Origin: a virus
DNA: 45,776 nt
Virus record (IMG/VR): IMGVR_UViG_3300037247_000151
Span: 1 to 45,776 of that record
Reading direction: 5' to 3' (one strand)
Shown here piece after piece: positions 1,438 to 40,721 of this stretch. A program made the position numbers and the translations under genes. How positions within the stretch are numbered: position 1 is the stretch's first letter; each line of letters opens with the position of its first letter. The notes beneath the pieces were generated by a model. It worked only from the letters and a program-made list of their open reading frames with translations, was not told the origin of the DNA and ran no database searches.

Positions 1438-1802
1438 TTTTTATCCTCCCCATTAATCATATTAAGGAAATAACCATAGTTTGGCGTTCCTATAAAATCA
1501 AAATGCACTTGCGTAACGACGGTAGATTCTTTCACATCACCGTAAATGTCGCTCATCACGTCTATCAACTCTTGTCGGTTGGCATACCCTTCAACCTTTG
1601 CGTCGTTATCCGTAACATCAGCAATCGTTTTTTCTTCTAGCGACTTTACGTCAATTAGTACGCAGTTTCTTCCTTTGTCCCCGATTAAAACCGTGTTCCC
1701 AAGAGGGTAGTCTCTTTTGCCTTTTCTTAGAGTGGCAACCTTGATGCCATTGCGCACATCGTCAAACATCATCTCTCTAAGTTCTATGATTATCTTGTTC
1801 AT
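1434..1802 (-). CDS. ASCH-domain protein
   Basis: FDDVRNGIKVATLRKGKRDYPLG...AKVEGYANRQEL pattern typical of ASCH. Confidence 0.55.
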   Translation of the reverse strand: MNKIIIELREMMFDDVRNGIKVATLRKGKRDYPLGNTVLIGDKGRNCVLIDVKSLEEKTIADVTDNDAKVEGYANRQELIDVMSDIYGDVKESTVVTQVHFDFIGTPNYGYFLNMINGEDKK

Positions 1803-2410
1803 TGTGTACCTTCTTTCTTTAGACGCTTGTTGATTTTAGTTACTTCTGTAAGCATTTCTTTTGTTGTCGATTTTATTACGGTTTTTCCAGTACGTTCTAA
1901 ATACTTATTCTCTACTTCATCGACTTCTTTAAACCCCATCTTTGCGTAAGCAGCGTATAGTTTTGTTTCGGCATCTGCCCAATCTTTTTTGTCTTGTTCA
2001 GGATTGAATAGATGCTCTGCGCTAGTTACTTGATCGGGATCGTCGTTTGATGGGACAGCAAAGGTTCTCCACAAAAGATACTTGTATGCGTAGCTTGATG
2101 CTTTACCACTGCCCTTGTCCGTGCCGTCGTGTCCTTGACCGCTTGACATCAAATCTATGAACTCTTCGGGTTTTTCTGTATTCAACAACCGATATGTGTA
2201 GATGCCACGAGTAACTTTTTCAACCTTGGTTTCTTCGACCTTGATTGGAAATAACACTAGCTTATACTCTATTAGTTTCTCTCTAAAGATTTGCGTGGTC
2301 TTCGCTTCCGATAAAAACTTGTACTTCGTAGAGCCGAACTCTGCTTTGCCGTCTTTTTTTAAATGTTCAACTTCGCTCATTATCTTGTGTATCTTCTCGT
2401 ATATGTTCAT
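1799..2410 (-). CDS. ERF-family single-strand annealing protein
   Basis: IMSEVEHLKKDGK...YKFLSEA...GKASSYAYKYLLWRTFAVPSNDDPD matches the ERF pattern; adjacent to ssb. Confidence 0.7.
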   Translation of the reverse strand: MNIYEKIHKIMSEVEHLKKDGKAEFGSTKYKFLSEAKTTQIFREKLIEYKLVLFPIKVEETKVEKVTRGIYTYRLLNTEKPEEFIDLMSSGQGHDGTDKGSGKASSYAYKYLLWRTFAVPSNDDPDQVTSAEHLFNPEQDKKDWADAETKLYAAYAKMGFKEVDEVENKYLERTGKTVIKSTTKEMLTEVTKINKRLKKEGTQ

Positions 2411-2423
2411 TTCACTTCTCCTT

Positions 2424-2726
2424 TCATGTGTAAGTTTTATTGTCCTTTTTCTCTGCTGCTATAATTGCTTGTGCGCTGTCCGATGTGCCTGCCGCTACAC
2501 GGAACAAATTGATTTGCATTTTAAGGCTTCCAACCTCGGCACGTAAAGCGTAGATTATTCTGTTAAGCTCTCTGACTTCTTCCTCTGCTTTCTCTGAATC
2601 CTCCAAAGCTATTCTAGTTAATTCTTCTTCGAGGTTTCCGTAGGTGTAGTGTACGCACATGTTCCCTCTTGCTATTATGTTGCAGTGACCGTCTTCTATG
2701 GTTATACAGTTAGTACATTTACTCAT
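2424..2726 (-). CDS. Hypothetical protein (Cys-rich N-terminus, coiled-coil C-terminus)
   Basis: ORF with AAGGAGAA SD. Confidence 0.6.
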   Translation of the reverse strand: MSKCTNCITIEDGHCNIIARGNMCVHYTYGNLEEELTRIALEDSEKAEEEVRELNRIIYALRAEVGSLKMQINLFRVAAGTSDSAQAIIAAEKKDNKTYT

Positions 2727-4428: not shown

Positions 4429-4752
4429 CTATCTACTTATGTGTATATCTGATTCTGGAAAATCTTTACTTGCTTGTAACAGCTCTTCTAACCAAGGTAA
4501 AAAATCATCATATGTACCCCAACCATTTTTTGCGTCAAACTTCCTATACTTAGAAGGGTTATCCTTCATGTCGGCTATGCCTTTTTCAAGATAAGGCGTT
4601 AATTCAGCCGCTTTCGTTATCCCTACTTCTTCGGGTCGCCATAAAGGTTTGTACATACCTGCTTCCTTCGCCATCATGTTTAAATTATGTGTTATGTTTT
4701 GAAAATGTACTTCTGATTCCCTTACCTCTGTAAAATAAATATCTAAGCTCAT
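4429..4752 (-). CDS. Hypothetical protein, first gene after the early promoter
   Basis: ORF with AAAGGAGATAAAGAT-ATG. Confidence 0.7.
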   Translation of the reverse strand: MSLDIYFTEVRESEVHFQNITHNLNMMAKEAGMYKPLWRPEEVGITKAAELTPYLEKGIADMKDNPSKYRKFDAKNGWGTYDDFLPWLEELLQASKDFPESDIHISR

Positions 4753-5122: not shown

Positions 5123-5509
5123 TTATTTCTTTGATACTGCTAGTCTTGATTCTATTAGGTTTGCAATGTAGTTTGCGGTGATGTCTGAGTTTGCGTTTAT
5201 AACACTAAGCGACCTTTCCGATATGTCTGCCATGAATATTGCAGTTGCTTGCTTCATTACGATTCTCGCTTCGGAAACCGTCAACTTCCCATCTGTGTTC
5301 ATTGCTTTAAGTCCTTCAACCACATTGACCGCCATGCCTGCTACAACGCCGTCTGCGACCTTTTCAGCTTCGTTTAGGGCTGATAGTAAGCCTTCGTTCT
5401 TTGTCTTCTCTTTAAGCCACTTAAACCCGATTCTCACAAGAGGGATTATCGCCCCTGTGAAGATGATGCCTATGATAGCTATTAAGATTTCTGTTAGATT
5501 TACTTGCAT
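5123..5509 (-). CDS. Holin, LL-H-like
   Basis: N-terminal TM segment ILIAIIGIIFTGAIIPLV followed by an amphipathic Ala/Val-rich region; last gene of the lysis block. Confidence 0.6.
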   Translation of the reverse strand: MQVNLTEILIAIIGIIFTGAIIPLVRIGFKWLKEKTKNEGLLSALNEAEKVADGVVAGMAVNVVEGLKAMNTDGKLTVSEARIVMKQATAIFMADISERSLSVINANSDITANYIANLIESRLAVSKK

Positions 5510-5543
5510 TTTATTTCTCCTTTCTTTTTCTTTATTCTATTTC

Positions 5544-5572
5544 AATATAACATACACTCTGTTACATTGCAA
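5544..5572 (-). promoter_or_regulatory. Sigma-A-type promoter upstream of the holin gene
   Basis: Minus strand TTGCAA-17 nt-TATATT. Confidence 0.55.
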
Positions 5573-5573
5573 A

Positions 5574-6428
5574 TTATTGTGTTATATTCTTAGTGCTTCT
5601 AAAATAATCTCTTCCCATAGGAATAAATTCAGCGTGCTCCGAATTATGGACGATGCCACAGCCTAGCGTAGGTCTATACTTTGAGTGTTTACCATATGCA
5701 AAAGCATAAGCGTCAATGTCGATGCCACAACCTACGTTAAGACCAAATATAATGTTTCGGTTGTTTGCTGAATATTTGCACCCGCCAAACGAATGAGAAT
5801 GTCCTATTACAGTAGACATGCGTTCTTGTAAAGCTGCGTTCATAGCACCGTCTTTACCCAAACAGTTAATTCCGTGTTTGTACAAGACACCTTCAACAAA
5901 AACCTCGTCATTTTGTATTTCCCAACCTACAGGAGGGTTATAAAGTTCTCTTATTGATTTAAGATAAACTTCGTCCATTCCTACAGAAGCCGCAAGTTGT
6001 TCTGGTCTTTTGTCGTGATTGCCTAATATCCATATTGCTTCTGGAAACTCGTTGTAATACCTTTGCACGTTTATGTACGCATTGCTATACTCTGTCCTTG
6101 ATGAGTCAGCGCACGTTTCGTTAATAAACCTTGAAAGTGCGTGATGGTCAACCAGGTCTCCTACAAATATAATAGTTTCGCACCCATTTTTTTTAAAAGT
6201 GTCTTTTAGGAAGGTGATGTAGTTAGGGTGGTCAAAAGGAGCATGTATGTCACCTGCTATTCCGACAGCTCCACGTTTACGTCTACGCATTGACGGTGGT
6301 TTTTCATCAAAGTGTTTTCGCACTATGCTTCTGGGTAAGCCTATTATTCGTGCTATTTCGTCTATGGCGAATTTCTGCGCTCTTAATTCATCAGCTCTTA
6401 GCCACTCCATATATGCACCTTCTTTCAT
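5574..6428 (-). CDS. Calcineurin-like metallophosphoesterase with N-terminal HTH-like segment
   Basis: GDIHAPFDHP, GDLVDH, GNHD and GHSH motifs. The SD-supported start may be Met7 (6410). Confidence 0.85.
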   Translation of the reverse strand: MKEGAYMEWLRADELRAQKFAIDEIARIIGLPRSIVRKHFDEKPPSMRRRKRGAVGIAGDIHAPFDHPNYITFLKDTFKKNGCETIIFVGDLVDHHALSRFINETCADSSRTEYSNAYINVQRYYNEFPEAIWILGNHDKRPEQLAASVGMDEVYLKSIRELYNPPVGWEIQNDEVFVEGVLYKHGINCLGKDGAMNAALQERMSTVIGHSHSFGGCKYSANNRNIIFGLNVGCGIDIDAYAFAYGKHSKYRPTLGCGIVHNSEHAEFIPMGRDYFRSTKNITQ

Positions 6429-6433
6429 ATTTT

Positions 6434-6462
6434 AGCATACACTATATAGCGTTTCTTGTCAA
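6434..6462 (-). promoter_or_regulatory. Sigma-A-type promoter upstream of the phosphoesterase gene
   Basis: Minus strand TTGACA-17 nt-TATGCT. The -10 box ends 5 nt before the ATG at 6428. Confidence 0.55.
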
Positions 6463-6746
6463 ATCTTAAACTCTGTCTTGTCGTTCCTGTACTCTCGCAT
6501 TAGCTTGTCAGCATCTTCAAACGCGCCATTTACCTCGCCTGTTTTGACTTTGACCATAATAGCGTGGGTACAAGGGATAAGCACTTGCATACCCCTGTTC
6601 AAATGAAAAACGTTTTCTTTTAAGTCTTGCAAATCCGTTACTCTTTTTTGATGCCTCTTATACATTTTCATTACTCCTATAAATATTCCTGTTATTGCCG
6701 CTACCGTCAGCGGTATGCCTACCCCTAAAATTATATCGTTTGTCAT
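6459..6746 (-). CDS. Small membrane protein (holin/antiholin candidate)
   Basis: Single N-terminal TM segment ILGVGIPLTVAAITGIFIGVM; directly downstream of the endolysin gene. Confidence 0.5.
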   Translation of the reverse strand: MTNDIILGVGIPLTVAAITGIFIGVMKMYKRHQKRVTDLQDLKENVFHLNRGMQVLIPCTHAIMVKVKTGEVNGAFEDADKLMREYRNDKTEFKI

Positions 6747-6764
6747 TTGTATGCTCCTTGCTGT

Positions 6765-7703
6765 CTATTTTACTATGAGTTTAGCCATTTGTTCATCTGT
6801 AATAGGTCTTGTTACACCTTTTACATAGTCGATTTTTCTCTTCCCTCCCTTGCTTTGCATACAGTAGTCTTTGATTGATTCCATTTTCCACGGATGAACA
6901 GACGACCTTGTGTGACCCATGAATTTGTCACGCATGTAACCGCCGACGTGTGAAACGTCCTGCCCACTTCTGAAAGCAAAGAACAGCTCATCGCCAAACT
7001 TCCAATCGCTATAATCTTCGTTCATTATGTCGGATTTGATTTGTGCTAGGGTTTTGAACTGCGTGTGTTTGTAGTTTCTCCACTGTGCAACTGTCCAGCT
7101 TCCTATGTCGTTGCTAATACCAAAGCATCTGTTAAAGTTTCTCCATACTTCCGCACAATCACCCTCGATGTCCATGTCTGATCTGCCACCGTAAGGCAAC
7201 CTTTTACCGTAATAGTTTATTTTGCTATACTTGTGATGATACCCGCAGTAAGGGTACGCCCATTGTTCCATGATGTTGTCGCCAGGTTTAAGTTCACGTA
7301 TCATAGCATCAAGAATGTTCTGCGTGTTCGTGCCAGAACAATACTTGTTGATATACTTTTGTATATTCTCGTATACTTCGCCTGTAATTGGAGGACTAGG
7401 CTCTACCCACTTCATGTAGTTGCCGCCTTTGTTGTAAACGTAAGCGGTTTCTCCTGCGTAAAGAACAGGCATGTACGGTTCTTCAAGAGTGGTTGATAAA
7501 GTGTCAAATATATCACCGCTATTTGCAAACCCTACTACTGTTGAGCTTCCACCTTCTGCGCTTGGTTCGCTTCTAATGTTTGCTCCGCTACCTGTGTACA
7601 TTACCTTTTTTGTTGATGGCGGTGGAGTTTGTACCTTGATTACTAGGTTGTCTGTTGGTTTAAACTCACCTATTTTCTGACCGTTCTTAATTATTTCTTG
7701 CAT
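6765..7703 (-). CDS. Endolysin: SH3b-like domain plus NlpC/P60-like peptidase
   Basis: GSGANIRSEPS...VGFANSGDIFD (SH3b-like); GDCAEVW (Cys) and GDELFFAFRSGQDVSHVGGYM (His) resemble the NlpC/P60 catalytic motifs. Confidence 0.65.
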   Translation of the reverse strand: MQEIIKNGQKIGEFKPTDNLVIKVQTPPPSTKKVMYTGSGANIRSEPSAEGGSSTVVGFANSGDIFDTLSTTLEEPYMPVLYAGETAYVYNKGGNYMKWVEPSPPITGEVYENIQKYINKYCSGTNTQNILDAMIRELKPGDNIMEQWAYPYCGYHHKYSKINYYGKRLPYGGRSDMDIEGDCAEVWRNFNRCFGISNDIGSWTVAQWRNYKHTQFKTLAQIKSDIMNEDYSDWKFGDELFFAFRSGQDVSHVGGYMRDKFMGHTRSSVHPWKMESIKDYCMQSKGGKRKIDYVKGVTRPITDEQMAKLIVK

Positions 7704-17333: not shown

Positions 17334-17972
17334 TTATAATACTTGTTTGTCTATTGCCCCTTCGTCTGGTGCTATAAATATTCCTATTACTTGTTTGTTT
17401 ATCGAACCTTCATCGTTTGCTATAAAAACTCTCGTAACTGCTTTATCTATACTTCCTTCGTCTGGTGATATTTTTATATTTCCTAAATCATGCGTTATGT
17501 CCAAGAAAATAGAACTTGCCTCAATAGCAAAACTTAAACCTAAACCAAAATCCCCTCTAATAGAAAGTTGTCCTGAAGGTCTTAACCCATTAATGATTGA
17601 TATTAAATCTGGCGTGGAAATTGACTTTGCTCCTGATTCAAGAGCTGACAACGAAAGACTACCTACAACAGCATTGGTAACTGTAGGTTGAGTATTCCAC
17701 GTAATAGTATCTTCGTCCCATACGTCTGTAAAATCACGAAGTTCAAAATTACCACCAGTGCTAGAACTTGCGTTAATAGTAAAGTTAAAAGTAACCGCAC
17801 TAATAGTTGCTCCAACGGGTACAGAAGCCATATCAAATCCAAACCAACCGAAATGATCAAATATACCACCGCTTTCAAATCCAACAAAAACATTGCTTGA
17901 AGAGCCAAAATTTGTAGTTGGGTTTTCTTCCTCTGTATATGATTCTTGATTTGAGTCAATACTTTTTATCAT
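17334..17972 (-). CDS. Structural protein with W-x-E-D-T-I-T-W-N-x-Q-P motif and C-terminal tandem repeats
   Basis: DVWDEDTITWNTQPT resembles carbohydrate-binding (DNRLRE/CBM96-like) domains. Three PDEGSIDKxV..FIA repeats at the C-terminus. Confidence 0.45.
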   Translation of the reverse strand: MIKSIDSNQESYTEEENPTTNFGSSSNVFVGFESGGIFDHFGWFGFDMASVPVGATISAVTFNFTINASSSTGGNFELRDFTDVWDEDTITWNTQPTVTNAVVGSLSLSALESGAKSISTPDLISIINGLRPSGQLSIRGDFGLGLSFAIEASSIFLDITHDLGNIKISPDEGSIDKAVTRVFIANDEGSINKQVIGIFIAPDEGAIDKQVL

Positions 17973-31464: not shown

Positions 31465-31537
31465 ATTGCAAAGTTACACATTGCATCAAGCCGTTTGTAA
31501 AACCTTCTTAGGTGTTGCGGCTTGGTTAGAACTTAGA

Positions 31538-31578
31538 GGCGATTTTATGCTGACGTGCATTATCTCGTTTCACTCGAC
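31538..31578 (-). repeat. IGE copy (inverted relative to the downstream plus-strand gene)
   Basis: Plus strand GGCGATTTTATGCTGACGTGCATTATCTCGTTTCACTCGAC. Confidence 0.7.
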
Positions 31579-31594
31579 TATATTGGAGGATATT

Positions 31595-31930
31595 ATGAAA
31601 CTTAAAGCTACTAAAAAAGAAATGAGAAACGGTTACTATACTATTATATCTATCGGATATTGTGATGCTCAATATCTTTTAAGGCACGAATCGCCAACTG
31701 CATATAGTTGCGGTCAAAATGGTTGGAGTTGCGACTACTACGACATAGATGGCGTTTTAATCTCTACAGGGTATTCACCTTTGAGCGATTCCAACGTAAA
31801 GCATGATTATAAGCTAATTCGAGAATACGACGAGAAGGCAAAGCAAGCAATCAATCTGGAGTCTTATGAAGAAACAGTAAAAGAGATTACAAGGCTACTG
31901 CATGAGTTTATTAAGACAGTTAAGAACTAA
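31595..31930 (+). CDS. Hypothetical protein
   Basis: SD TTGGAGGA-ATG at 31595. The track start at 31466 reads through the IGE. Confidence 0.65.
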   Translation: MKLKATKKEMRNGYYTIISIGYCDAQYLLRHESPTAYSCGQNGWSCDYYDIDGVLISTGYSPLSDSNVKHDYKLIREYDEKAKQAINLESYEETVKEITRLLHEFIKTVKN

Positions 31931-35813: not shown

Positions 35814-36377
35814 ATGAGTGAATTAAAGAAGTGTCCGTTCTGTAATAGTGAAGATAGTGGCGTTTATGATGAGGTGACGGGAAGGGCAACAAAACATTAT
35901 GTCGAGTGTCATTTATGTGGAGCTTCCACTAATTTATTGCCCACAGAAGAAGACGCAATAGCTGCGTGGAACAAAAGAGCAGACGGATGGATAGGTGTAG
36001 AATATCCACCAACAGAACAAAAAGAATATCTCGTAACAGATGGTGAGTTTGTAGTAAGACAAACATTCTTTAATAACAATGCGCATAAAGGATTCATCGA
36101 CGGCGTTATATGCAAAGAAGACATCACTTACTGGCAACCGTTGCCCGATCCAAAAGTGAGTAGAGAGGAAGGGGACAAAATGAAAGCATATAAATGTGAC
36201 TTATGTTTCAAGTATTGTGATGACGTCTTAACTATACATTCAATAGTGAGACCATACTCGCACAGTGTTTACGATGAATTGAATGGGCAAAGTGTAGATT
36301 GTTGTGAAGACTGTTTCGATAAAATCATGGCGTTTATAGAACCAATGATAAAGAAGCGTAAAAGGCGAACAAAGTGA
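35814..36377 (+). CDS. Lar-like restriction-alleviation domain fused to a DUF551-like domain, plus a Cys-rich C-terminal module
   Basis: KKCPFCNSED...VECHLCGAST...EEDAIAAWNKR (Lar pattern); GWIGVEYPP...ITYWQPLPDPK (DUF551 pattern). An in-frame internal SD+ATG (MKAYKCDLC...) is also present. Confidence 0.65.
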   Translation: MSELKKCPFCNSEDSGVYDEVTGRATKHYVECHLCGASTNLLPTEEDAIAAWNKRADGWIGVEYPPTEQKEYLVTDGEFVVRQTFFNNNAHKGFIDGVICKEDITYWQPLPDPKVSREEGDKMKAYKCDLCFKYCDDVLTIHSIVRPYSHSVYDELNGQSVDCCEDCFDKIMAFIEPMIKKRKRRTK

Positions 36378-36403
36378 GCTAATGAGCGATTAATAATAGC
36401 GAA
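36374..36403 (+). repeat. IGE copy (short variant)
   Basis: GTGAGCTAATGAGCGATTAATAATAGCGAA; its TGA is the stop of 35814..36377. Confidence 0.6.
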
Positions 36404-36423
36404 AGAAATAGGCACTAATTAAA

Positions 36424-36792
36424 GTGCCTTTCCCTCGCCTTGATGCTCATTATTCGCTATCGTTCAATCAACTTATGGACGTTCTTAACAAAGTTTCAAA
36501 GCCGGAGAACAACAACACTATTGTAACAGACCAACTACACGCATACAGCCCGTTAGAGCGTAACAACTACGTGCATCTAAGGATAGACCACCGTCAAGCG
36601 TATTCAGACCACAACGGAACTCATACGAACACTATCGAGAGTTTTTGGGCGACATTAAAGCGTGGTGTGTACGGAATATATCATCATGTATCTGTTAAAT
36701 ATATGCAAAGATATGTTGACGAGTTTTGTTTTAGGTATAATAATCGTGGATTGAATATGTTTGATATGGTTTTGAAACAAGCGATGATATAA
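36424..36792 (+). pseudogene. IS1595 (ISXO2-like) transposase, C-terminal fragment only
   Basis: IVTDQLHAYSPL...HTNTIESFWATLKRGVYGIYHHVSVKYMQRYVDEFCFRYNNR. The N-terminal zinc ribbon and first catalytic Asp are missing. GTG start lies inside a hairpin with no SD. Confidence 0.7.
36434..36469 (-). repeat. Degenerate IGE copy inside the 5' end of the transposase fragment
   Basis: Plus strand CTCGCCTTGATGCTCATTATTCGCTATCGTTCAATC. Confidence 0.5.
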
Positions 36793-37281: not shown

Positions 37282-37521
37282 TTACGCTAAAACTATATCT
37301 TGTGTTAACCGTGCGTAAAGGTATAGTTCCGTTTTTTTTTGATAAACTGTAGTCCTTTCCCCTACTTTCCATGTGAAAGTAGTTGGTATTCCGACATTAA
37401 TCCTCTCAAAAGGCTCTATGAACAATTTGCGCTTTGTTTCTTTAAAAATCTCAGAGTAAGCATCTGGGTAGTCTTCCGCAAGTTCTAGCGCCATCGTTGT
37501 TGCTCTATCAAATCTTTTCAT
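37282..37521 (-). CDS. Hypothetical protein
   Basis: 79-aa ORF with SD AAAGGATTGA. Confidence 0.6.
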   Translation of the reverse strand: MKRFDRATTMALELAEDYPDAYSEIFKETKRKLFIEPFERINVGIPTTFTWKVGERTTVYQKKTELYLYARLTQDIVLA

Positions 37522-37537
37522 GTTTCAATCCTTTCAA

Positions 37538-37577
37538 ATTGAGCTTGCTCAATAATGCGCGTCAGCACCATATCGCC
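37538..37577 (+). repeat. IGE copy (inverted relative to the flanking minus-strand genes)
   Basis: ATTGAGCTTGCTCAATAATGCGCGTCAGCACCATATCGCC. Confidence 0.75.
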
Positions 37578-37578
37578 C

Positions 37579-37680
37579 TCACATAAACCATCTGATGTAG
37601 ATTATCGCTGCCCAAAACGCTGCTATTGTTAGTCCTGCTACCCAACCTTTTTTTCTGCCTTGTTCTATATACCATTTCAT
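37579..37680 (-). CDS. Putative 33-aa membrane peptide (not in ORF track)
   Basis: ATGA overlap with the upstream gene; MKWYIEQGRKKGWVAGLTIAAFWAAIIYIRWFM. Confidence 0.4.
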   Translation of the reverse strand: MKWYIEQGRKKGWVAGLTIAAFWAAIIYIRWFM

Positions 37681-37862
37681 TTTTCTGCCTCCATTCTCTT
37701 TTTAATTTCCTCGCTTGCAACAATAATTATTGGTCGCACGCTTAGCTGTTCCTGTTTGGTTAAATATTCTAGGAATAACCTTTGCCCTAGTATGTACCCC
37801 TTGTGATATCCTTGTTCGTACCCAATTTGCCACTCGCTACTCATTCCCATGTCTGAATACAT
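37677..37862 (-). CDS. Hypothetical protein
   Basis: 61-aa ORF with SD AAGGAGTAAAA. Confidence 0.55.
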   Translation of the reverse strand: MYSDMGMSSEWQIGYEQGYHKGYILGQRLFLEYLTKQEQLSVRPIIIVASEEIKKRMEAEK

Positions 37863-37871
37863 TTTTACTCC

Positions 37872-37911
37872 TTGGCGATATGATTAATCGCTACTTATTC
37901 GCTTTGCTCAC
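37872..37911 (-). repeat. IGE copy
   Basis: GTGAGCAAAGCGAATAAGTAGCGATTAATCATATCGCCAA. Supplies the codons EQSE and the TAA stop of 37895..38092. Confidence 0.8.
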
Positions 37912-38092
37912 TCTGATTCTGCTCGTCGTATTCTTCGTCGGTTGTGATGTGCCCGTAACTCCAGTTGTAATGATAGCCGCACTTGCATTTCACGTCTGTT
38001 TCTACAAGCCCTATTTCATCGTGAAACTTCTCTACCTTGCACTCATCTTCACACCTAGGACAATATGTCGGTGCTTCTTTCCAAAATCTCAT
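37895..38092 (-). CDS. Zinc-ribbon mini-protein with acidic tail
   Basis: CPRCEDEC...CKCG. Confidence 0.6.
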   Translation of the reverse strand: MRFWKEAPTYCPRCEDECKVEKFHDEIGLVETDVKCKCGYHYNWSYGHITTDEEYDEQNQSEQSE

Positions 38093-38210
38093 CTTTTCTC
38101 ACCTTTTTCCCCATTCGTTTCAACAACCTGTAAAATCTGCGGTTGTCGTACTCTGTTATGTCTAAATTCTGAATCTTTGCCCACTTTTTGAAGTTCTTTT
38201 TTGTTTTCAT
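38055..38210 (-). CDS. Putative 51-aa basic protein (not in ORF track)
   Basis: SD AGGAGGTACAAC-ATG; overlaps the next gene by 38 nt. Confidence 0.35.
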   Translation of the reverse strand: MKTKKNFKKWAKIQNLDITEYDNRRFYRLLKRMGKKVRKDEILERSTDILS

Positions 38211-38246
38211 GTTGTACCTCCTGCTTTATAGTATGCAGAAAGTTTT

Positions 38247-38299
38247 AAAAAGATTCCTATTGCATATTATTTTATATAGAATCTTTTGCAATAGGATTC
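38247..38299 (-). terminator. Rho-independent terminator after the radical SAM gene
   Basis: Minus strand GAATCCTATTGCA-22 nt-TGCAATAGGAATC (one mismatch) followed by TTTTT. Confidence 0.55.
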
Positions 38300-38339
38300 G
38301 TCGAGTTGATTAATCGCGCATTATTTCGCTGCGCTCAAC
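38300..38339 (-). repeat. IGE copy
   Basis: GTTGAGCGCAGCGAAATAATGCGCGATTAATCAACTCGAC; its TGA is the stop of the radical SAM gene. Confidence 0.85.
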
Positions 38340-39078
38340 TTTTGTTCATCTCTGCTCTTAATCCTTCTTTGATATAATAGTTAAGCTCGTTCTCTTTGCA
38401 TAGCCTCTCGCACTCTTTACCAAACTCTCCCCAGTTTATTTCTGATGGGTGGTAGTTTAATTTTCCTATTTTGAACTTATCAACATATCCTAAATTGAGA
38501 CGAAGCATGAGGTATATATCTTTTTCATTCAATACGGGTTCCATAGACATCCATGTTCTTATTCCGTGGTCGTGAGCGCGATCCAATACAGCTAAACGAT
38601 TTGCAGGTATAGCCGCAAAGGGTTCTTGTTCGCACGGCAGACACAGCTTTCCACCCCCATATCCTGTGTATGTCACGCCAAACCAATCATTCTCATCGAG
38701 TAAGTCGAAGTCTCTCTCGGAAATTGTACCGCCTTTTGTTAATATCTGTACATGGTTCCCGCTATCCTTAATCAATTTAATGATTTCTCTAGTCGCAGTT
38801 GTGTCTATATCCGCAGGGTAAGGGTCACATGTAAAACAAAGATGTATTAATTTGCCCTTTAATTTTTCCCTTTCGATTTGCTTTTTAACTTCGTTTACAA
38901 TATTTTTCCTCGGCTCGACGTTAGAGTGAAAATCCTCTCGTGTCTTTCTTAACACGCTCGGCGCAAAACAGTACGAGCACCGATGGGTACAGCCTGTGTA
39001 AATGTTAATTGCATAGTCCCCGTATTCTTTAGCTTTCCCGCTAGGCTTGTATATTGGTTTCATCTTCAATTCTCCCAT
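38335..39078 (-). CDS. Radical SAM enzyme (SplB/COG1533-like)
   Basis: CX3CX2C cluster motif in YTGCTHRCSYCFAP near the N-terminus. An alternative SD-supported start is Met6 (39063). Confidence 0.8.
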   Translation of the reverse strand: MGELKMKPIYKPSGKAKEYGDYAINIYTGCTHRCSYCFAPSVLRKTREDFHSNVEPRKNIVNEVKKQIEREKLKGKLIHLCFTCDPYPADIDTTATREIIKLIKDSGNHVQILTKGGTISERDFDLLDENDWFGVTYTGYGGGKLCLPCEQEPFAAIPANRLAVLDRAHDHGIRTWMSMEPVLNEKDIYLMLRLNLGYVDKFKIGKLNYHPSEINWGEFGKECERLCKENELNYYIKEGLRAEMNKS

Positions 39079-39548
39079 CTAAAATATTTTCCATCCTGGT
39101 ATTCTCTTGTAAATAAATTATGTCCTCTCTTGCCGACAAAGTATAGGTAATCTTTCGGTAGCCTGTACTCGTAGATGCCCTCTTGCTCCATCAGCCACGC
39201 TCTCAACACGTTTCTTGCGATTGCCTTGTACTCGTCTGTCGCAGGTGCGTGTCTGTCGTAGGCGAACTGGCTTGAAGCGGTTGCACACTCGATTATGGTG
39301 TTACCACGATGTCCAACGTCTACTCGGTTTAGTACCGTCCATACTACTGCTTCTTTTTGTATTTCCGGGATATGCTCGTAATTTGCTTCTCCGTGTATTA
39401 CTTTTGCTAAGACGATTATTTCTTCTTTGTAGTTTTGTAGTTCTACTGATGCGTTGTAGTATATTTCGTCTCGTGGGTGGATAGCGTAAGCAGTCCCGGG
39501 TAACATCAGCAAGATTAGTACTACCGTTGTGATTAATTTCTTTATCAT
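39066..39548 (-). CDS. Secreted SleB/CwlJ-family (Hydrolase_2) cell-wall hydrolase
   Basis: Signal peptide MIKKLITTVVLILLMLPGTAYA. LAKVIHGEA...QKEAVVWTVLNRV...SSQFAY matches the SleB catalytic-domain pattern. Confidence 0.7.
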   Translation of the reverse strand: MIKKLITTVVLILLMLPGTAYAIHPRDEIYYNASVELQNYKEEIIVLAKVIHGEANYEHIPEIQKEAVVWTVLNRVDVGHRGNTIIECATASSQFAYDRHAPATDEYKAIARNVLRAWLMEQEGIYEYRLPKDYLYFVGKRGHNLFTREYQDGKYFRWEN

Positions 39549-39558
39549 TTGTTCCTCC

Positions 39559-39753
39559 TTAAATTACAAGCAAATCTTTATAAAGGTTTTCATCACATAT
39601 AAACTTTATAGACCCTAATTCAAGTGACCGCCCTTGTTCTTCAATTAGTTTGGCGTTAAGTTTCTTAACGGCTTGTGTAGGTCCTTCTGCTATTACATAT
39701 GCTTCTCTTGTCGTTACCCTTGTTTGCTCTGTGATTTTATATAGATTCATCAT
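39559..39753 (-). CDS. Hypothetical protein
   Basis: 64-aa ORF. Confidence 0.5.
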   Translation of the reverse strand: MMNLYKITEQTRVTTREAYVIAEGPTQAVKKLNAKLIEEQGRSLELGSIKFICDENLYKDLLVI

Positions 39754-40093
39754 ACACCTCGAACTTCGTTCCGTTGTAGCGGTAGAGCTGTCTCATAACT
39801 ATGCATTCGTCGCCGATGTAACAAAATGCGCCTCCGTGCGTTGTGCTTACGCTTTCCGAGAATAGATCGACCTTCTGCTGTTCCTCTATCGGCAACCCTG
39901 AGATTATCTCAAAGCCTGTCATTTCCGTACCTTTTGAAACCTCAAATCCGACCTCTACTGCCGCTAACCGAGCCATTGCGTTAACTAAATCTTCTTTACT
40001 TTCATAAATATCTAGCCTCACCCACGCTTCGTGTACCTTTTTCATTTCATCAAACTCTTCTTTTAGTAACCTCGCGCATTTTATCTGTTCCAT
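39737..40093 (-). CDS. Hypothetical protein
   Basis: 118-aa ORF with SD AAGGAGAAG. Confidence 0.6.
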   Translation of the reverse strand: MEQIKCARLLKEEFDEMKKVHEAWVRLDIYESKEDLVNAMARLAAVEVGFEVSKGTEMTGFEIISGLPIEEQQKVDLFSESVSTTHGGAFCYIGDECIVMRQLYRYNGTKFEVYDESI

Positions 40094-40111
40094 ATTACTT
40101 CTCCTTATCTC

Positions 40112-40369
40112 CTAATATTCTTTGTCGCCGATTTTATTGCTCACTAGGTCAGCTTCAAATTCCTCTTGCTCGATTGCATCAAGTTTTTGCGGTGTTAAAT
40201 CGCTTACTTCGTTGTCGAGTGCTTCTTTGATTACCTCTATGTCGTGTTGGTGTATCCATTTACCTTGTTTTTCTAGTTCGTCTATTATTTCATTGATTTT
40301 GTTGCCCATTGCTCCATCTCCATATACTGGGCTCTTTCCAAAAAGTGATTTCCTTTCTACCTTCTTCAT
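40112..40369 (-). CDS. Hypothetical protein
   Basis: 85-aa ORF with SD GGGAGGTATAAGA. Confidence 0.6.
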   Translation of the reverse strand: MKKVERKSLFGKSPVYGDGAMGNKINEIIDELEKQGKWIHQHDIEVIKEALDNEVSDLTPQKLDAIEQEEFEADLVSNKIGDKEY

Positions 40370-40389
40370 TCTTATACCTCCCTTTTTTT

Positions 40390-40429
40390 ATCGAGTTGAT
40401 TAATCGAGCATTATTTCGCTACGCTCACC
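40390..40429 (-). repeat. IGE copy
   Basis: GGTGAGCGTAGCGAAATAATGCTCGATTAATCAACTCGAT; its TGA is the stop of 40425..40721. Confidence 0.85.
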
Positions 40430-40721
40430 TTTCCAAAATTCCAATTTCTTTTGATACTCCCATGTATTTCTTCACTTTTTCTATTTTGTCGTTGTAAATA
40501 GCAGGGTCAATATGGCTGCGGAAAATCGTTGCACTATCCGAAAGCATGTACCTTATTGCATCAATATCAAGAAGTTCTTTATTGAGTTCCGCTTGGTTGT
40601 TAATGTTTGGTCTGTTTGGATGATGGTTTTTCAACCCAAATCGCAAGCATTTTGTAGCGACTTTTTGCACCTCCGCACATTCCTCGATTAAACATATCAA
40701 CAAATATTCTGTTCTGTCCAT
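40425..40721 (-). CDS. MazG-like NTP pyrophosphohydrolase (small all-alpha)
   Basis: LIEECAEVQKVATKCLRFG and ELLDIDAIRYM fit the EExxE...K..R...E..D pattern. SD AAAGGAGAACACT-ATG at 40721. Confidence 0.45.
   Translation of the reverse strand: MDRTEYLLICLIEECAEVQKVATKCLRFGLKNHHPNRPNINNQAELNKELLDIDAIRYMLSDSATIFRSHIDPAIYNDKIEKVKKYMGVSKEIGILER

Follow-up and report, generated by a model that had tools for sequence, protein, structure and literature searches.

A hydrolase resembling the spore cortex-lytic enzyme SleB and a radical SAM enzyme resembling spore photoproduct lyase (SPL) are encoded next to each other in the DNA analyzed here (the window, 45,776 nucleotides; IMG/VR record IMGVR_UViG_3300037247_000151), whose source is a ∼46-kb gut-type tailed phage of the Clostridia type. 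The question raised by this locus is whether the two proteins act together on the spores of the host, as a preliminary description had suggested, or whether they are independent neighbors. Both open reading frames (ORFs) of that description are present on the minus strand, and they are listed here together with the lysis genes of the phage:

39066..39548, minus strand: coding sequence of a 160-aa predicted exported Hydrolase_2 (SleB/CwlJ-fold) protein (ORF, profile and model)
38335..39063, minus strand: coding sequence of a 242-aa radical SAM enzyme of the SPL/COG1533 clade (preferred start, ATG at 39063; start of the longest ORF, 39078)
5123..5509 and 6459..6746: holin-like genes, ∼31 kb from the hydrolase gene
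6765..7703: presumed endolysin gene (NLPC_P60, E 0.066; SH3_3, E 0.031; both sub-threshold)

The pair lies at the far end of a replication and recombination operon; upstream of it, this strand also encodes NinB/Orf, RusA, loaders of the DnaD-like and DnaC-like types and a MazG-like protein. Its placement in an early/replication module was right, the timing of expression being presumed from gene order. The operon is tightly packed. Thus, the hydrolase gene begins 10 nt past the upstream ORF, has its ribosome-binding site (AAGGAGG) at 39554..39560, and is flanked by a 64-aa ORF on one side and the radical SAM gene on the other. A Lar-type restriction-alleviation gene is found close by, as it also is in relatives. 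Scanning for promoters yielded 14 sites, compared with 10.4 ± 3.3 expected from shuffled sequence, which is no excess; none of them lay upstream of the hydrolase gene, and the pair lacks a dedicated promoter. In GC content, the pair (41.5%) matches the window as a whole (40.9%) and hence gives no sign of recent acquisition. When positions 37500..40500 were compared with the GenBank phages by megablast, no match was obtained, so that no annotated close relative is available. As for the separate NlpC/P60 endolysin that had been described, the 312-aa protein encoded beside the holin-like genes shows the architecture of an SH3b domain combined with a Cys/His peptidase, and its assignment to NlpC/P60 stays at the sub-threshold level given above.

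The SleB-type hydrolase

The protein is predicted to begin with a signal peptide, which is followed by the catalytic domain:

39483..39548, minus strand: predicted Sec signal peptide, residues 1-22, MIKKLITTVVLILLMLPGTAYA (read from the sequence; cleavage after A-Y-A)
39072..39446, minus strand: conserved catalytic domain, residues ∼35-159 (family alignment)
39387..39389, minus strand: codon of the catalytic Glu54 (family alignment)

The N-terminus is composed of a basic n-region, a hydrophobic core of 13 residues (mean Kyte-Doolittle value, 2.72) and an A-x-A site, after which the mature protein would start with IHP. This layout is common to the close relatives and is consistent with the Sec-type signal peptide proposed before. 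An N-terminal hydrophobic segment was present in 46 of the 55 hydrolase relatives, and a lipobox-like motif was matched by a regular expression in 2 of them.

With the single sequence, the match to Pfam Hydrolase_2 (PF07486) was weak (20.9 bits, E 5.7e-4, residues 65-132) and did not reach the gathering score of 27, and no match was obtained among the PDB sequences. Relatives were collected by an exhaustive HMMER search, a word-indexed protein search having given one non-identical relative. Hydrolase_2 was matched by 49 of 55 relatives (best E, 3e-13), and the family profile matched the SleB structures 4fet (E 1.5e-9) and 4f55 (E 2.8e-8). The three best PDB matches of the AlphaFold model (pLDDT 92.4) were all SleB, and BFVD matches (28-35% identity, E 3e-8 to 1e-5) carried the name "Cell Wall Hydrolase / Spore cortex-lytic enzyme"; PHROG 30550, matched with an E value of 1e-21, is listed as of unknown function. 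The earlier assignment to the SleB-type Hydrolase_2 family was thus correct, weak as a single-sequence match but firm by family profile and model. No second Pfam domain was detected in the protein, residues 1-34 corresponding in the model to the signal peptide and a helix. As modeled, the mature protein consists of one long helix and a domain of the SleB/CwlJ fold in which the catalytic Glu is intact. This residue (E54), which aligns with the YGE(S/A)RG Glu of Bacillus anthracis SleB, is kept in 54 of 55 family members, and W70, N74, R75 and Q94 are invariant. For its part, the window protein deviates from the consensus of its family at three positions that are otherwise well conserved (R56N, G57Y and D113N), so that a weak activity or another specificity is possible.

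The catalytic-domain fold is like that of SleB and CwlJ (PF07486; 4fet and 4f55), with Foldseek probabilities of 0.98-0.99 and an rmsd of 2.3-2.6 Å over 103 columns, and the signature YGE(A/S)RG...LNR...QF, including the conserved catalytic Glu, is likewise shared. However, SleB carries an N-terminal PG_binding_1 domain and has YpeB as a partner, and the phage hydrolase has neither of them. SleB is expressed in the forespore, whereas the phage protein bears a predicted Sec signal peptide and belongs to a phage operon. Its C-terminal half (D113, W118, E121, LPxxYxxFxG...N.F) is particular to the phage family, and it scored 15.2 bits against the SleB equivalog model TIGR02869, whose cut-off is 236.5. 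Unlike SleB, moreover, the family extends to lineages that are not known to form spores. It was found in Saccharibacteria (7 of 80 genomic loci) and in Christensenellaceae genomes, neither of which is known to form spores.

The presence of the SleB/Hydrolase_2 domain in phages has already been documented (PMC8223927, PMC10294663). Phage Hydrolase_2 lysins named "cell wall hydrolase SleB" and gut-virome proteins contain the same domain as the window hydrolase; in contrast to those lysins, the sub-family of the window mostly has an N-terminal hydrophobic segment and is encoded in early, regulatory and replication regions, not in lysis cassettes. The family comprises at least 1,302 clusters (50% identity) and is encoded in early genome regions of phages and prophages of Clostridia. 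Among 26 sampled relatives, the Pfam families of the neighbors were HTH regulators, RecT, YqaJ, SSB and DnaB_2; holin, amidase and terminase were absent from the commonest neighbor families listed for this sample. No conserved partner of the hydrolase was found, any one immediate neighbor occurring in at most 5 of 51 loci; in 19 of 80 loci, an XRE-type repressor was encoded no more than 6 kb away. In 6 of 80 viral hydrolase loci, including three near-identical ones, a DUF5131-type protein was encoded ∼2 kb or less downstream, an association that was judged too sporadic to suggest a link.

The radical SAM enzyme

The radical SAM gene had been described as overlapping the hydrolase gene by 13 nt, which is an artefact of the longest ORF. 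The methionine of MKPIY, or the position one residue earlier, is the start in 26 of 31 aligned homologues, the other 5 having longer N-terminal extensions. The MKPIY start was also chosen by one gene caller, and GGAG is found 7-8 nt upstream of the ATG at 39063. Since the homologues begin at MKPIY, the two genes are separated by a gap of 2 nt (TGA-AG-ATG). Two motifs stand out in the alignment:

38968..38991, minus strand: CX3CX2C [4Fe-4S] motif with C25, C29 and C32, the invariant Y31, and F33 (alignment)
38815..38844, minus strand: invariant HLCFTCDPYP motif with H74, C76, C79 and D80, at the end of strand beta-2 (alignment; model strand 72-75)

The protein matched Pfam Radical_SAM (PF04055) with 46 bits (cut-off, 29.5), and C25, C29 and C32 were invariant in all 32 family sequences; GCTHRCSYCF is thus a genuine radical SAM cluster motif, as had been read from it. 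At the level of the family, the enzyme is compact and cytoplasmic, with a [4Fe-4S] cluster bound by these three cysteines. The best NCBIfam matches were PA0069 (63.5 bits) and Rv2578c (61.7 bits), covering residues 21-184, and PHROG 13321 was matched with an E value of 6e-28. The model (pLDDT 91.6) matched many radical SAM structures with a Foldseek probability of 1.00, in agreement with a partial TIM-barrel fold, and its best structural match in the PDB was SPL (4fhc; E 2e-7, TM 0.69-0.70). The resemblance to the COG1533/SPL group therefore holds in both sequence profile and structure. The JGI name of the homologues is "DNA repair photolyase." A search of PDB sequences with the single protein gave noise and a marginal SPL match, and GH71, the top PDB match of the family profile, was discarded as a spurious hit on the HLCFTCDPYP stretch.

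The YAIxxxTGCxxxCxYC block of SPL (SplB; TIGR04070, PF20903; 4fhc) aligns with the phage enzyme. The CX3CX2C motif falls on the SPL sequence YAIPLATGCMGHCHYCY, Y31 corresponding to SPL Tyr96 and F33 to SPL Tyr98. The invariant C76 sits 44 residues past C32, compared to a spacing of 43 for Cys140 in SPL, and these two cysteines may be equivalent. However, SPL has ∼340 aa, whereas the phage enzyme has 242 and is devoid of the ∼85-residue N-terminal region of SPL, its cluster motif starting at residue 25. The scores against the SPL models TIGR04070 and PF20903 were 22 and 16.3 bits (cut-offs, 400 and 27), with only profile positions ∼73-171 being covered. Of 32 family members, 28, including that of the window, have Phe at the Tyr98 relay position, directly after the third cluster Cys, and 4 have Tyr, so that an SPL-like chemistry is not assured.

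The families represented by PA0069 and Rv2578c (COG1533 "DNA repair photolyase," NF033668/NF038135) were the best sequence-profile matches, but the phage enzyme scored far below their cut-offs (360 and 430 bits), is ∼100 residues shorter and is phage-borne, without the LexA or ImuB-C context. PA0069 and SplB-like COG1533 genes are SOS-regulated or located within repair operons. DUF5131 (PF07505; phage Gp37/Gp68) and TIGR04470 ("radical SAM mobile pair protein B") are likewise compact, radical-SAM-like proteins of mobile elements, and they belong with SPL to RadicalSAM.org megacluster 5 (PMC9477430). Neither cut-off was reached by the window protein, which scored 27.7 bits against DUF5131 (E 2.4e-6; cut-off, 28.9) and 44.7 bits against TIGR04470. 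Membership of DUF5131 is nonetheless borderline, because some homologues have a precomputed PF07505 match. Unlike in those two families, no TcmP-like or pair-A partner adjoins the radical SAM genes.

The radical SAM family comprises at least 4,420 clusters (90% identity), located in phage replication modules. Its neighbors, classified by Pfam, were DNA methylases, HNH, YopX, DUF551 and sigma-70 region 4 proteins. The commonest annotated ones were the DNA methylases (N6_N4, Dam and D12), and SAM synthetase and PAPS-reductase were occasional. No conserved partner was detected, any one immediate neighbor being present in at most 7 of 75 radical SAM loci. No experimental study of this phage family turned up in the literature searched.

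Co-occurrence of the two genes and their probable roles

Co-occurrence was analyzed in 240 loci (the top 80 viral hydrolase, 80 viral radical SAM and 80 genomic hydrolase loci). The radical SAM family was present in none of the 80 viral hydrolase loci. The hydrolase was found in 1 of the 80 viral radical SAM loci (L140), where two genes lie in between, and the radical SAM gene in 1 of the 80 genomic hydrolase loci (L184), with six genes and ∼4.5 kb between. A locus was thus shared in 2 of 240 cases and the genes were adjacent in none, a result at odds with the functional pair that had been proposed. The nearest relatives of the radical SAM gene (72% and 70% identical proteins, Dulem virus 36) have unrelated upstream genes; the possibility that the upstream genes of relatives L250 and Dulem virus 36 are hydrolases that have diverged was rejected, the hhalign probabilities being 1.6% and 0.3%. 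The adjacency of the two genes is probably an accident.

The reading that we favor, with a probability of about 70%, is that of two independent adjacent accessory genes, one for an exported wall hydrolase and the other for a radical SAM enzyme acting on DNA. The hydrolase would be synthesized with a cleavable Sec signal peptide and, on export, be cut by signal peptidase to a mature protein of ∼16 kDa. Expressed at the stage of replication and acting outside the membrane, it would cleave glycan strands in the peptidoglycan of its own host, like a lytic transglycosylase; its role would be that of an accessory for wall remodelling, distinct from the endolysin of the lysis cassette. The radical SAM enzyme, for its part, would split SAM to a 5'-deoxyadenosyl radical and probably act on DNA, in lesion repair or base modification. 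DNA is proposed as the substrate because the nearest structure is SPL, because the nearest sequence families, PA0069 and Rv2578c, are SOS-regulated DNA-damage genes, and because the phage family is encoded amid genes for replication, recombination and DNA methylases. Both proteins are further members of known families, correctly classified, and represent an ordinary case. The pair itself offers little to follow up, its useful outcomes being the corrected start of the radical SAM gene and the clear negative on co-occurrence. Two large uncharacterized phage families emerge, the compact SPL-clade radical SAM enzymes and the early-region Hydrolase_2 proteins, both frequent in phages that infect Clostridia of the gut and of digesters, and a separate biochemical study of either one could be worthwhile.

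That the two genes form a module manipulating sporulation or germination of the host, by cortex lysis and spore photoproduct repair, is highly improbable. The pair is not conserved, even though the genes are adjacent here and probably translationally coupled. The nearest characterized proteins, SleB and SPL, are indeed both spore proteins, but their equivalog models were missed by a wide margin, the hydrolase has no PG_binding_1 domain or YpeB-like neighbor, and the radical SAM enzyme is without the N-terminal region and the Tyr98 of SPL. Gut phages of spore-formers are enriched in sleB/cwlJ homologues (PMC10294663); against this, Hydrolase_2 is common as a lysin domain of phages with Gram-negative hosts (PMC8223927), and the hydrolase family reaches Saccharibacteria and Christensenellaceae. 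Neither protein is a spore-specific orthologue, and the spore link drawn in the preliminary description is not supported; the apparent theme arises because the best-studied relatives of two broad families bear spore names. It is also unlikely that the hydrolase is a true or auxiliary endolysin, exported early by the Sec route and switched on by the holin-induced collapse of the membrane potential, as reportedly occurs with Lys44 of Oenococcus phage fOg44. This would fit its predicted signal peptide, and also that no other peptidoglycan hydrolase of the genome is supported by a profile at the level of the family, the candidate of the lysis cassette reaching only an E value of 0.066 to NlpC/P60. 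Nevertheless, that candidate is laid out as an SH3b plus peptidase protein beside the holin-like genes, ∼31 kb away, while the hydrolase gene lies within the replication operon and the commonest neighbors of its sampled relatives are regulators and recombination/replication genes. Even less likely is a role of the hydrolase-fold protein at the cell envelope as a superinfection-exclusion or lysogenic-conversion factor, not a wall-degrading enzyme. The hydrophobic N-terminal segment of most relatives, the lipobox-like motif of a few and the nearby XRE-type repressors would suit such a role, but the near-complete retention of the catalytic Glu and the other active-site residues (54 of 55) argues for an enzymatic function, and the gene belongs to a lytic replication operon without a promoter of its own.

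For the radical SAM enzyme, the alternative to repair is that it produces a modified nucleotide or base of DNA, or breaks down a signal of host defence, and thereby evades restriction or other defence. The frequency of DNA methylases among the annotated neighbors, the occasional SAM synthetase and PAPS-reductase, and the Lar-type gene nearby in the window and in relatives point in this direction. The weak likeness to viperin and QueE models does so too, but those matches were marginal (E 7e-4 to 7e-3) and far weaker than the ones to PA0069 and Rv2578c. A hypermodification pathway would also be expected to have a conserved partner enzyme, of which there is none, and in structure the enzyme is closest to SPL, a DNA repair lyase, so this alternative is doubtful. 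PADLOC gave marginal viperin and PDC matches for the radical SAM protein and none for the hydrolase or the small neighbors, and a reading as a defence system was rejected on this result. A further and rather improbable version has the radical SAM family as a minimal SPL-clade enzyme with a chemistry of its own that acts on the DNA of the phage within strict anaerobes, as a lesion repair or a base modification of a new type, and, separately, the early-region Hydrolase_2 family as a non-lysis factor that remodels the wall or releases muropeptides; no joint action is needed in it.

The hairpin downstream of the pair

The pair had been said to be closed by its own terminator, and a candidate structure is found beyond the radical SAM gene:

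38247..38299, minus strand: hairpin of 12 pairs with a 22-nt loop, followed by U5; possible leaky intrinsic terminator (RNA fold)

The hairpin and the U5 tract are real, but their form is not canonical. Folding of 38252..38299 gave a free energy of -21.9 kcal/mol (z -2.76), with 2 of 200 shuffled sequences being as good, and a scan for consensus terminators made no call there, because the 22-nt loop exceeds 8 nt. Downstream of the hairpin, the genes are co-directional, each with its own ribosome-binding site.

Layout and surroundings of the two genes

The features on which the analysis rests are the following:
1799..2410, ERF
about 4.4-30.8 kb, terminase, portal, tail and presumed lysis genes
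38252..38299, hairpin followed by U5 (RNA fold: dG -21.9 kcal/mol, z -2.76)
38335..39078, minus strand, radical SAM open reading frame (ORF) at its longest, 247 aa, carrying GCTHRCSYCF
39066..39548, minus strand, hydrolase ORF, 160 aa, with a strong ribosome-binding site (AAGGAGG)

Both minus-strand ORFs were present as previously described, but the 13-nt overlap reported between them was not retained, since it arose from taking the longest ORF. The start lay at the Met of MKPIY or one residue earlier in 26 of 31 aligned enzyme homologues, with longer N-terminal extensions in 5 of the 31. The MKPIY start is also used in one public gene call (L004), and the corresponding ATG at 39063 has GGAG 7-8 nt upstream. 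The hydrolase stop and the enzyme start thus read TGA-AG-ATG.

A terminator proper to the pair had also been proposed. The hairpin and its U5 tract are real, but the consensus terminator scan made no call there because of the 22-nt loop, and the genes beyond it run in the same direction and have good ribosome-binding sites. The promoter scan revealed no promoter-like site upstream of the pair, with no excess over shuffled sequence. The two genes form the end of a tightly packed gene run and not a self-contained unit.

Upstream on the same strand lie genes for NinB/Orf, a RusA-like resolvase, DnaD-like and DnaC-like helicase loaders and a MazG-like pyrophosphohydrolase. This region is the replication/recombination module of a tailed phage of roughly 46 kb. 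No integrase was identified among the window ORFs scanned. The GC content of the pair matched that of the window (41.5% versus 40.9%). Megablast of 37500..40500 found no close relative among GenBank phages; two other public contigs carry the same phage.

A plus-strand island separates the early and late modules. It contains a Pistol self-cleaving ribozyme (RF02679, 31930..31999, 58.4 bits; gathering score, 34.5) directly after ORF 31466..31930. Also on the plus strand, the gene for a Lar-type restriction-alleviation protein (35814..36377, E 1e-10) precedes a 122-aa fragment (36424..36792) whose sole match is to the C-terminal half of an IS1595-type DDE transposase; the stretch 35814..36792 resembles a decayed insertion lying on the other strand. 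Lar also occurs near the radical SAM gene of one relative (L006).

The hydrolase and its predicted export

The N terminus of the hydrolase, MIKKLITTVVLILLMLPGTAYA followed by IHP, contains the basic n-region, the 13-residue hydrophobic core (mean Kyte-Doolittle hydropathy, 2.72) and the A-x-A cleavage motif expected of the Sec-type signal peptide predicted earlier. A hydrophobic N-terminal segment precedes the conserved unit (residues about 35-159) in 46 of the 55 family members aligned, and a lipobox-like motif was found by regular expression in 2.

The SleB-type Hydrolase_2 label proved correct. The single sequence scored 20.9 bits, short of the Pfam threshold of 27, but 49 of the 55 relatives matched the domain, and the family profile retrieved structures of the spore cortex-lytic enzyme SleB (4fet, E 1.5e-9; 4f55, E 2.8e-8). 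The three best PDB matches of the AlphaFold model (pLDDT 92.4) were all SleB catalytic domains, with probabilities of 0.98-0.99 and an rmsd of 2.3-2.6 A over 103 columns. Gut-virome proteins matched in BFVD (E 3e-8 to 1e-5) are already annotated as 'Cell Wall Hydrolase' or 'Spore cortex-lytic enzyme, lytic transglycosylase'. The protein matched PHROG 30550 (listed function: unknown) at E 1e-21, and an exhaustive HMMER search gave at least 1,302 representative relatives, of which 465 reached E <= 1e-10. Glu54, kept in 54 of 55 members, aligned with the Glu of SleB YGESRG, the catalytic Glu151 of Bacillus anthracis SleB. With departures at well-conserved positions (R56N, G57Y and D113N), the window protein is a divergent family member. 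SleB orthology was rejected (TIGR02869, 15.2 versus 236.5 bits); unlike SleB, the hydrolase has neither a peptidoglycan-binding domain nor a YpeB-like neighbor.

The hydrolase would be exported by Sec and its signal peptide cleaved, leaving a soluble extracytoplasmic Hydrolase_2 domain of ~16 kDa. Judging from the conserved Glu, it would cleave glycan strands as a lytic transglycosylase, like SleB, and the operon structure suggests expression together with the replication genes. We regard it as an accessory wall-remodeling enzyme. The main rival explanation, that it is a Sec-exported auxiliary endolysin, was kept because the lysis-cassette candidate at 6765..7703 matches only below threshold (SH3_3, E 0.031; NlpC/P60, E 0.066); the consistent location of the hydrolase family in early regions speaks against this rival. 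For the separate NlpC/P60 endolysin described previously, the candidate is this 312-aa protein in the presumed lysis region, whose NlpC/P60 match is sub-threshold; an endolysin of this sequence would be a very divergent one.

Two small ORFs of the presumed lysis region (5123..7703, minus strand) have transmembrane segments, and one of them matches Phage_holin_6_1 at E 0.037; a metallophosphoesterase (5574..6428; PHROG 221, E 1e-44) is encoded between the two. A skipping-rope RNA motif (RF02924, 4959..5069, minus strand, 59.1 bits; gathering score, 36.7) occupies the gap between gene 4429..4752 and the holin-like gene at 5123..5509. In the tail region, a 212-aa protein (17334..17972, minus strand) with a CBM96 carbohydrate-binding module (E 7.6e-14) probably belongs to the receptor-binding apparatus. 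L009, a relative of the radical SAM locus, encodes in its early region, ~1 kb downstream, a 158-aa protein (2133..2609, plus strand) that carries a 3D domain (PF06725, an MltA-like cell-wall domain), again a wall-active domain outside a lysis cassette.

The radical SAM enzyme

The reading of GCTHRCSYCF as a radical SAM cluster motif was confirmed by the PF04055 match (46 bits) and by the invariance of C25, C29 and C32. Also invariant are Y31 and, in an HLCFTCDPYP block, H74, C76, C79 and D80. The best NCBIfam matches were PA0069 (63.5 bits) and Rv2578c (61.7 bits), followed by mobile-pair protein B (44.7) and spore photoproduct lyase (SPL; 22 bits), all far under their cut-offs; DUF5131 was a near miss (27.7 bits; Pfam cut-off, 28.9). 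The enzyme matched PHROG 13321 (listed function: unknown) at E 6e-28. At least 4,420 homologues were found in a large protein database, the best 120 being 61-72% identical, ~240 aa long and in many cases on 30-60-kb contigs; several bear the JGI name 'DNA repair photolyase'.

The resemblance to SPL and COG1533 also held: SPL was the structure closest to the model (pLDDT 91.6; E 2e-7, TMq 0.69-0.70), and SuiB, NifB, BlsE, lipoyl synthase, QueE and viperin ranked below it. The cluster-motif block of the enzyme, YAINIYTGCTHRCSYCF, aligned with SPL YAIPLATGCMGHCHYCY, placing Y31 at the position of SPL Tyr96. C76, at the end of strand beta-2, lies 44 residues past the last cluster Cys, versus 43 for SPL Cys140, so that spacing and strand position are compatible with their equivalence. 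Unlike SPL, the enzyme lacks the ~85-residue N-terminal region. Like 28 of 32 family members, it has Phe at the Tyr98 position, and with this Phe SPL chemistry cannot be assumed.

The enzyme would bind a [4Fe-4S] cluster, cleave SAM reductively and run a radical reaction. Its substrate is most probably DNA, given the nearest structure, the nearest families and the replication and methylase context, with repair somewhat more likely than modification. PA0069, Rv2578c and SplB-like COG1533 genes are SOS regulated or lie within repair operons (PMC8565304; bioRxiv 10.1101/2022.03.14.484287; PMC3765255).

Co-occurrence and the proposed spore role

Both features are real and their family labels correct, each protein belonging to an already known kind. 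However, the functional pair proposed in the preliminary description did not recur in relatives, an outcome that the same description had named as refuting the idea. By tblastn and HMM searches, none of 80 viral hydrolase loci had the enzyme within 6 kb on either side. Conversely, only one of 80 viral enzyme loci (L140) had the hydrolase within that distance, with two genes between. Among 80 genomic hydrolase loci (5 kb on either side), the enzyme appeared once, in a Clostridia MAG prophage (L184), six genes and ~4.5 kb away and 70% identical to that of the window. The genes upstream of the closest enzyme relatives (P0002, 72%; P0004, 70%; Dulem virus 36) were unrelated and, when all neighbors were clustered, at most 7 of 75 enzyme loci and 5 of 51 hydrolase loci shared the same immediate upstream or downstream neighbor.

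When the three genes nearest on either side were assigned to Pfam families, the two sets differed: DNA methylases, DUF551, YopX, HNH, PAPS reductase and sigma-70 region 4 for the enzyme, and HTH regulators, AAA_23, RecT, YqaJ, SSB and DnaB_2 for the hydrolase, with no holin, amidase or terminase among the hydrolase-neighbor families listed. Given this scarce co-occurrence and the differing neighbors, both genes are part of the variable accessory zone in early regions, where they only occasionally meet; their juxtaposition here is a matter of chance. Residual interest lies in the two large, uncharacterized phage families rather than in this locus.

A spore role found no support, and the present analysis revealed no tie of either gene to sporulation. 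The genomic hosts of the hydrolase family were mainly Oscillospiraceae, Christensenellaceae, Ruminococcus, Acutalibacteraceae and unclassified Clostridia, with Candidatus Saccharibacteria or Nanosyncoccus in 7 of 80 loci. Saccharibacteria and Christensenella are not known to form spores. As a lysin domain, Hydrolase_2 is well recognized and dominates in phages of Gram-negative hosts (PMC8223927), and sleB/cwlJ homologues in gut phages have already been catalogued and suggested to be repurposed lysins (PMC10294663).

In 6 of 80 viral loci (L081, L085, L087, L017, L022 and L040; three near-identical, one with a Pfam match at E 6e-41), the hydrolase homologue has a gene for a DUF5131-type radical-SAM-like protein 1-2.5 kb downstream, an occurrence judged too sporadic to indicate a link. 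This protein and the enzyme are different members of the same radical SAM megacluster.
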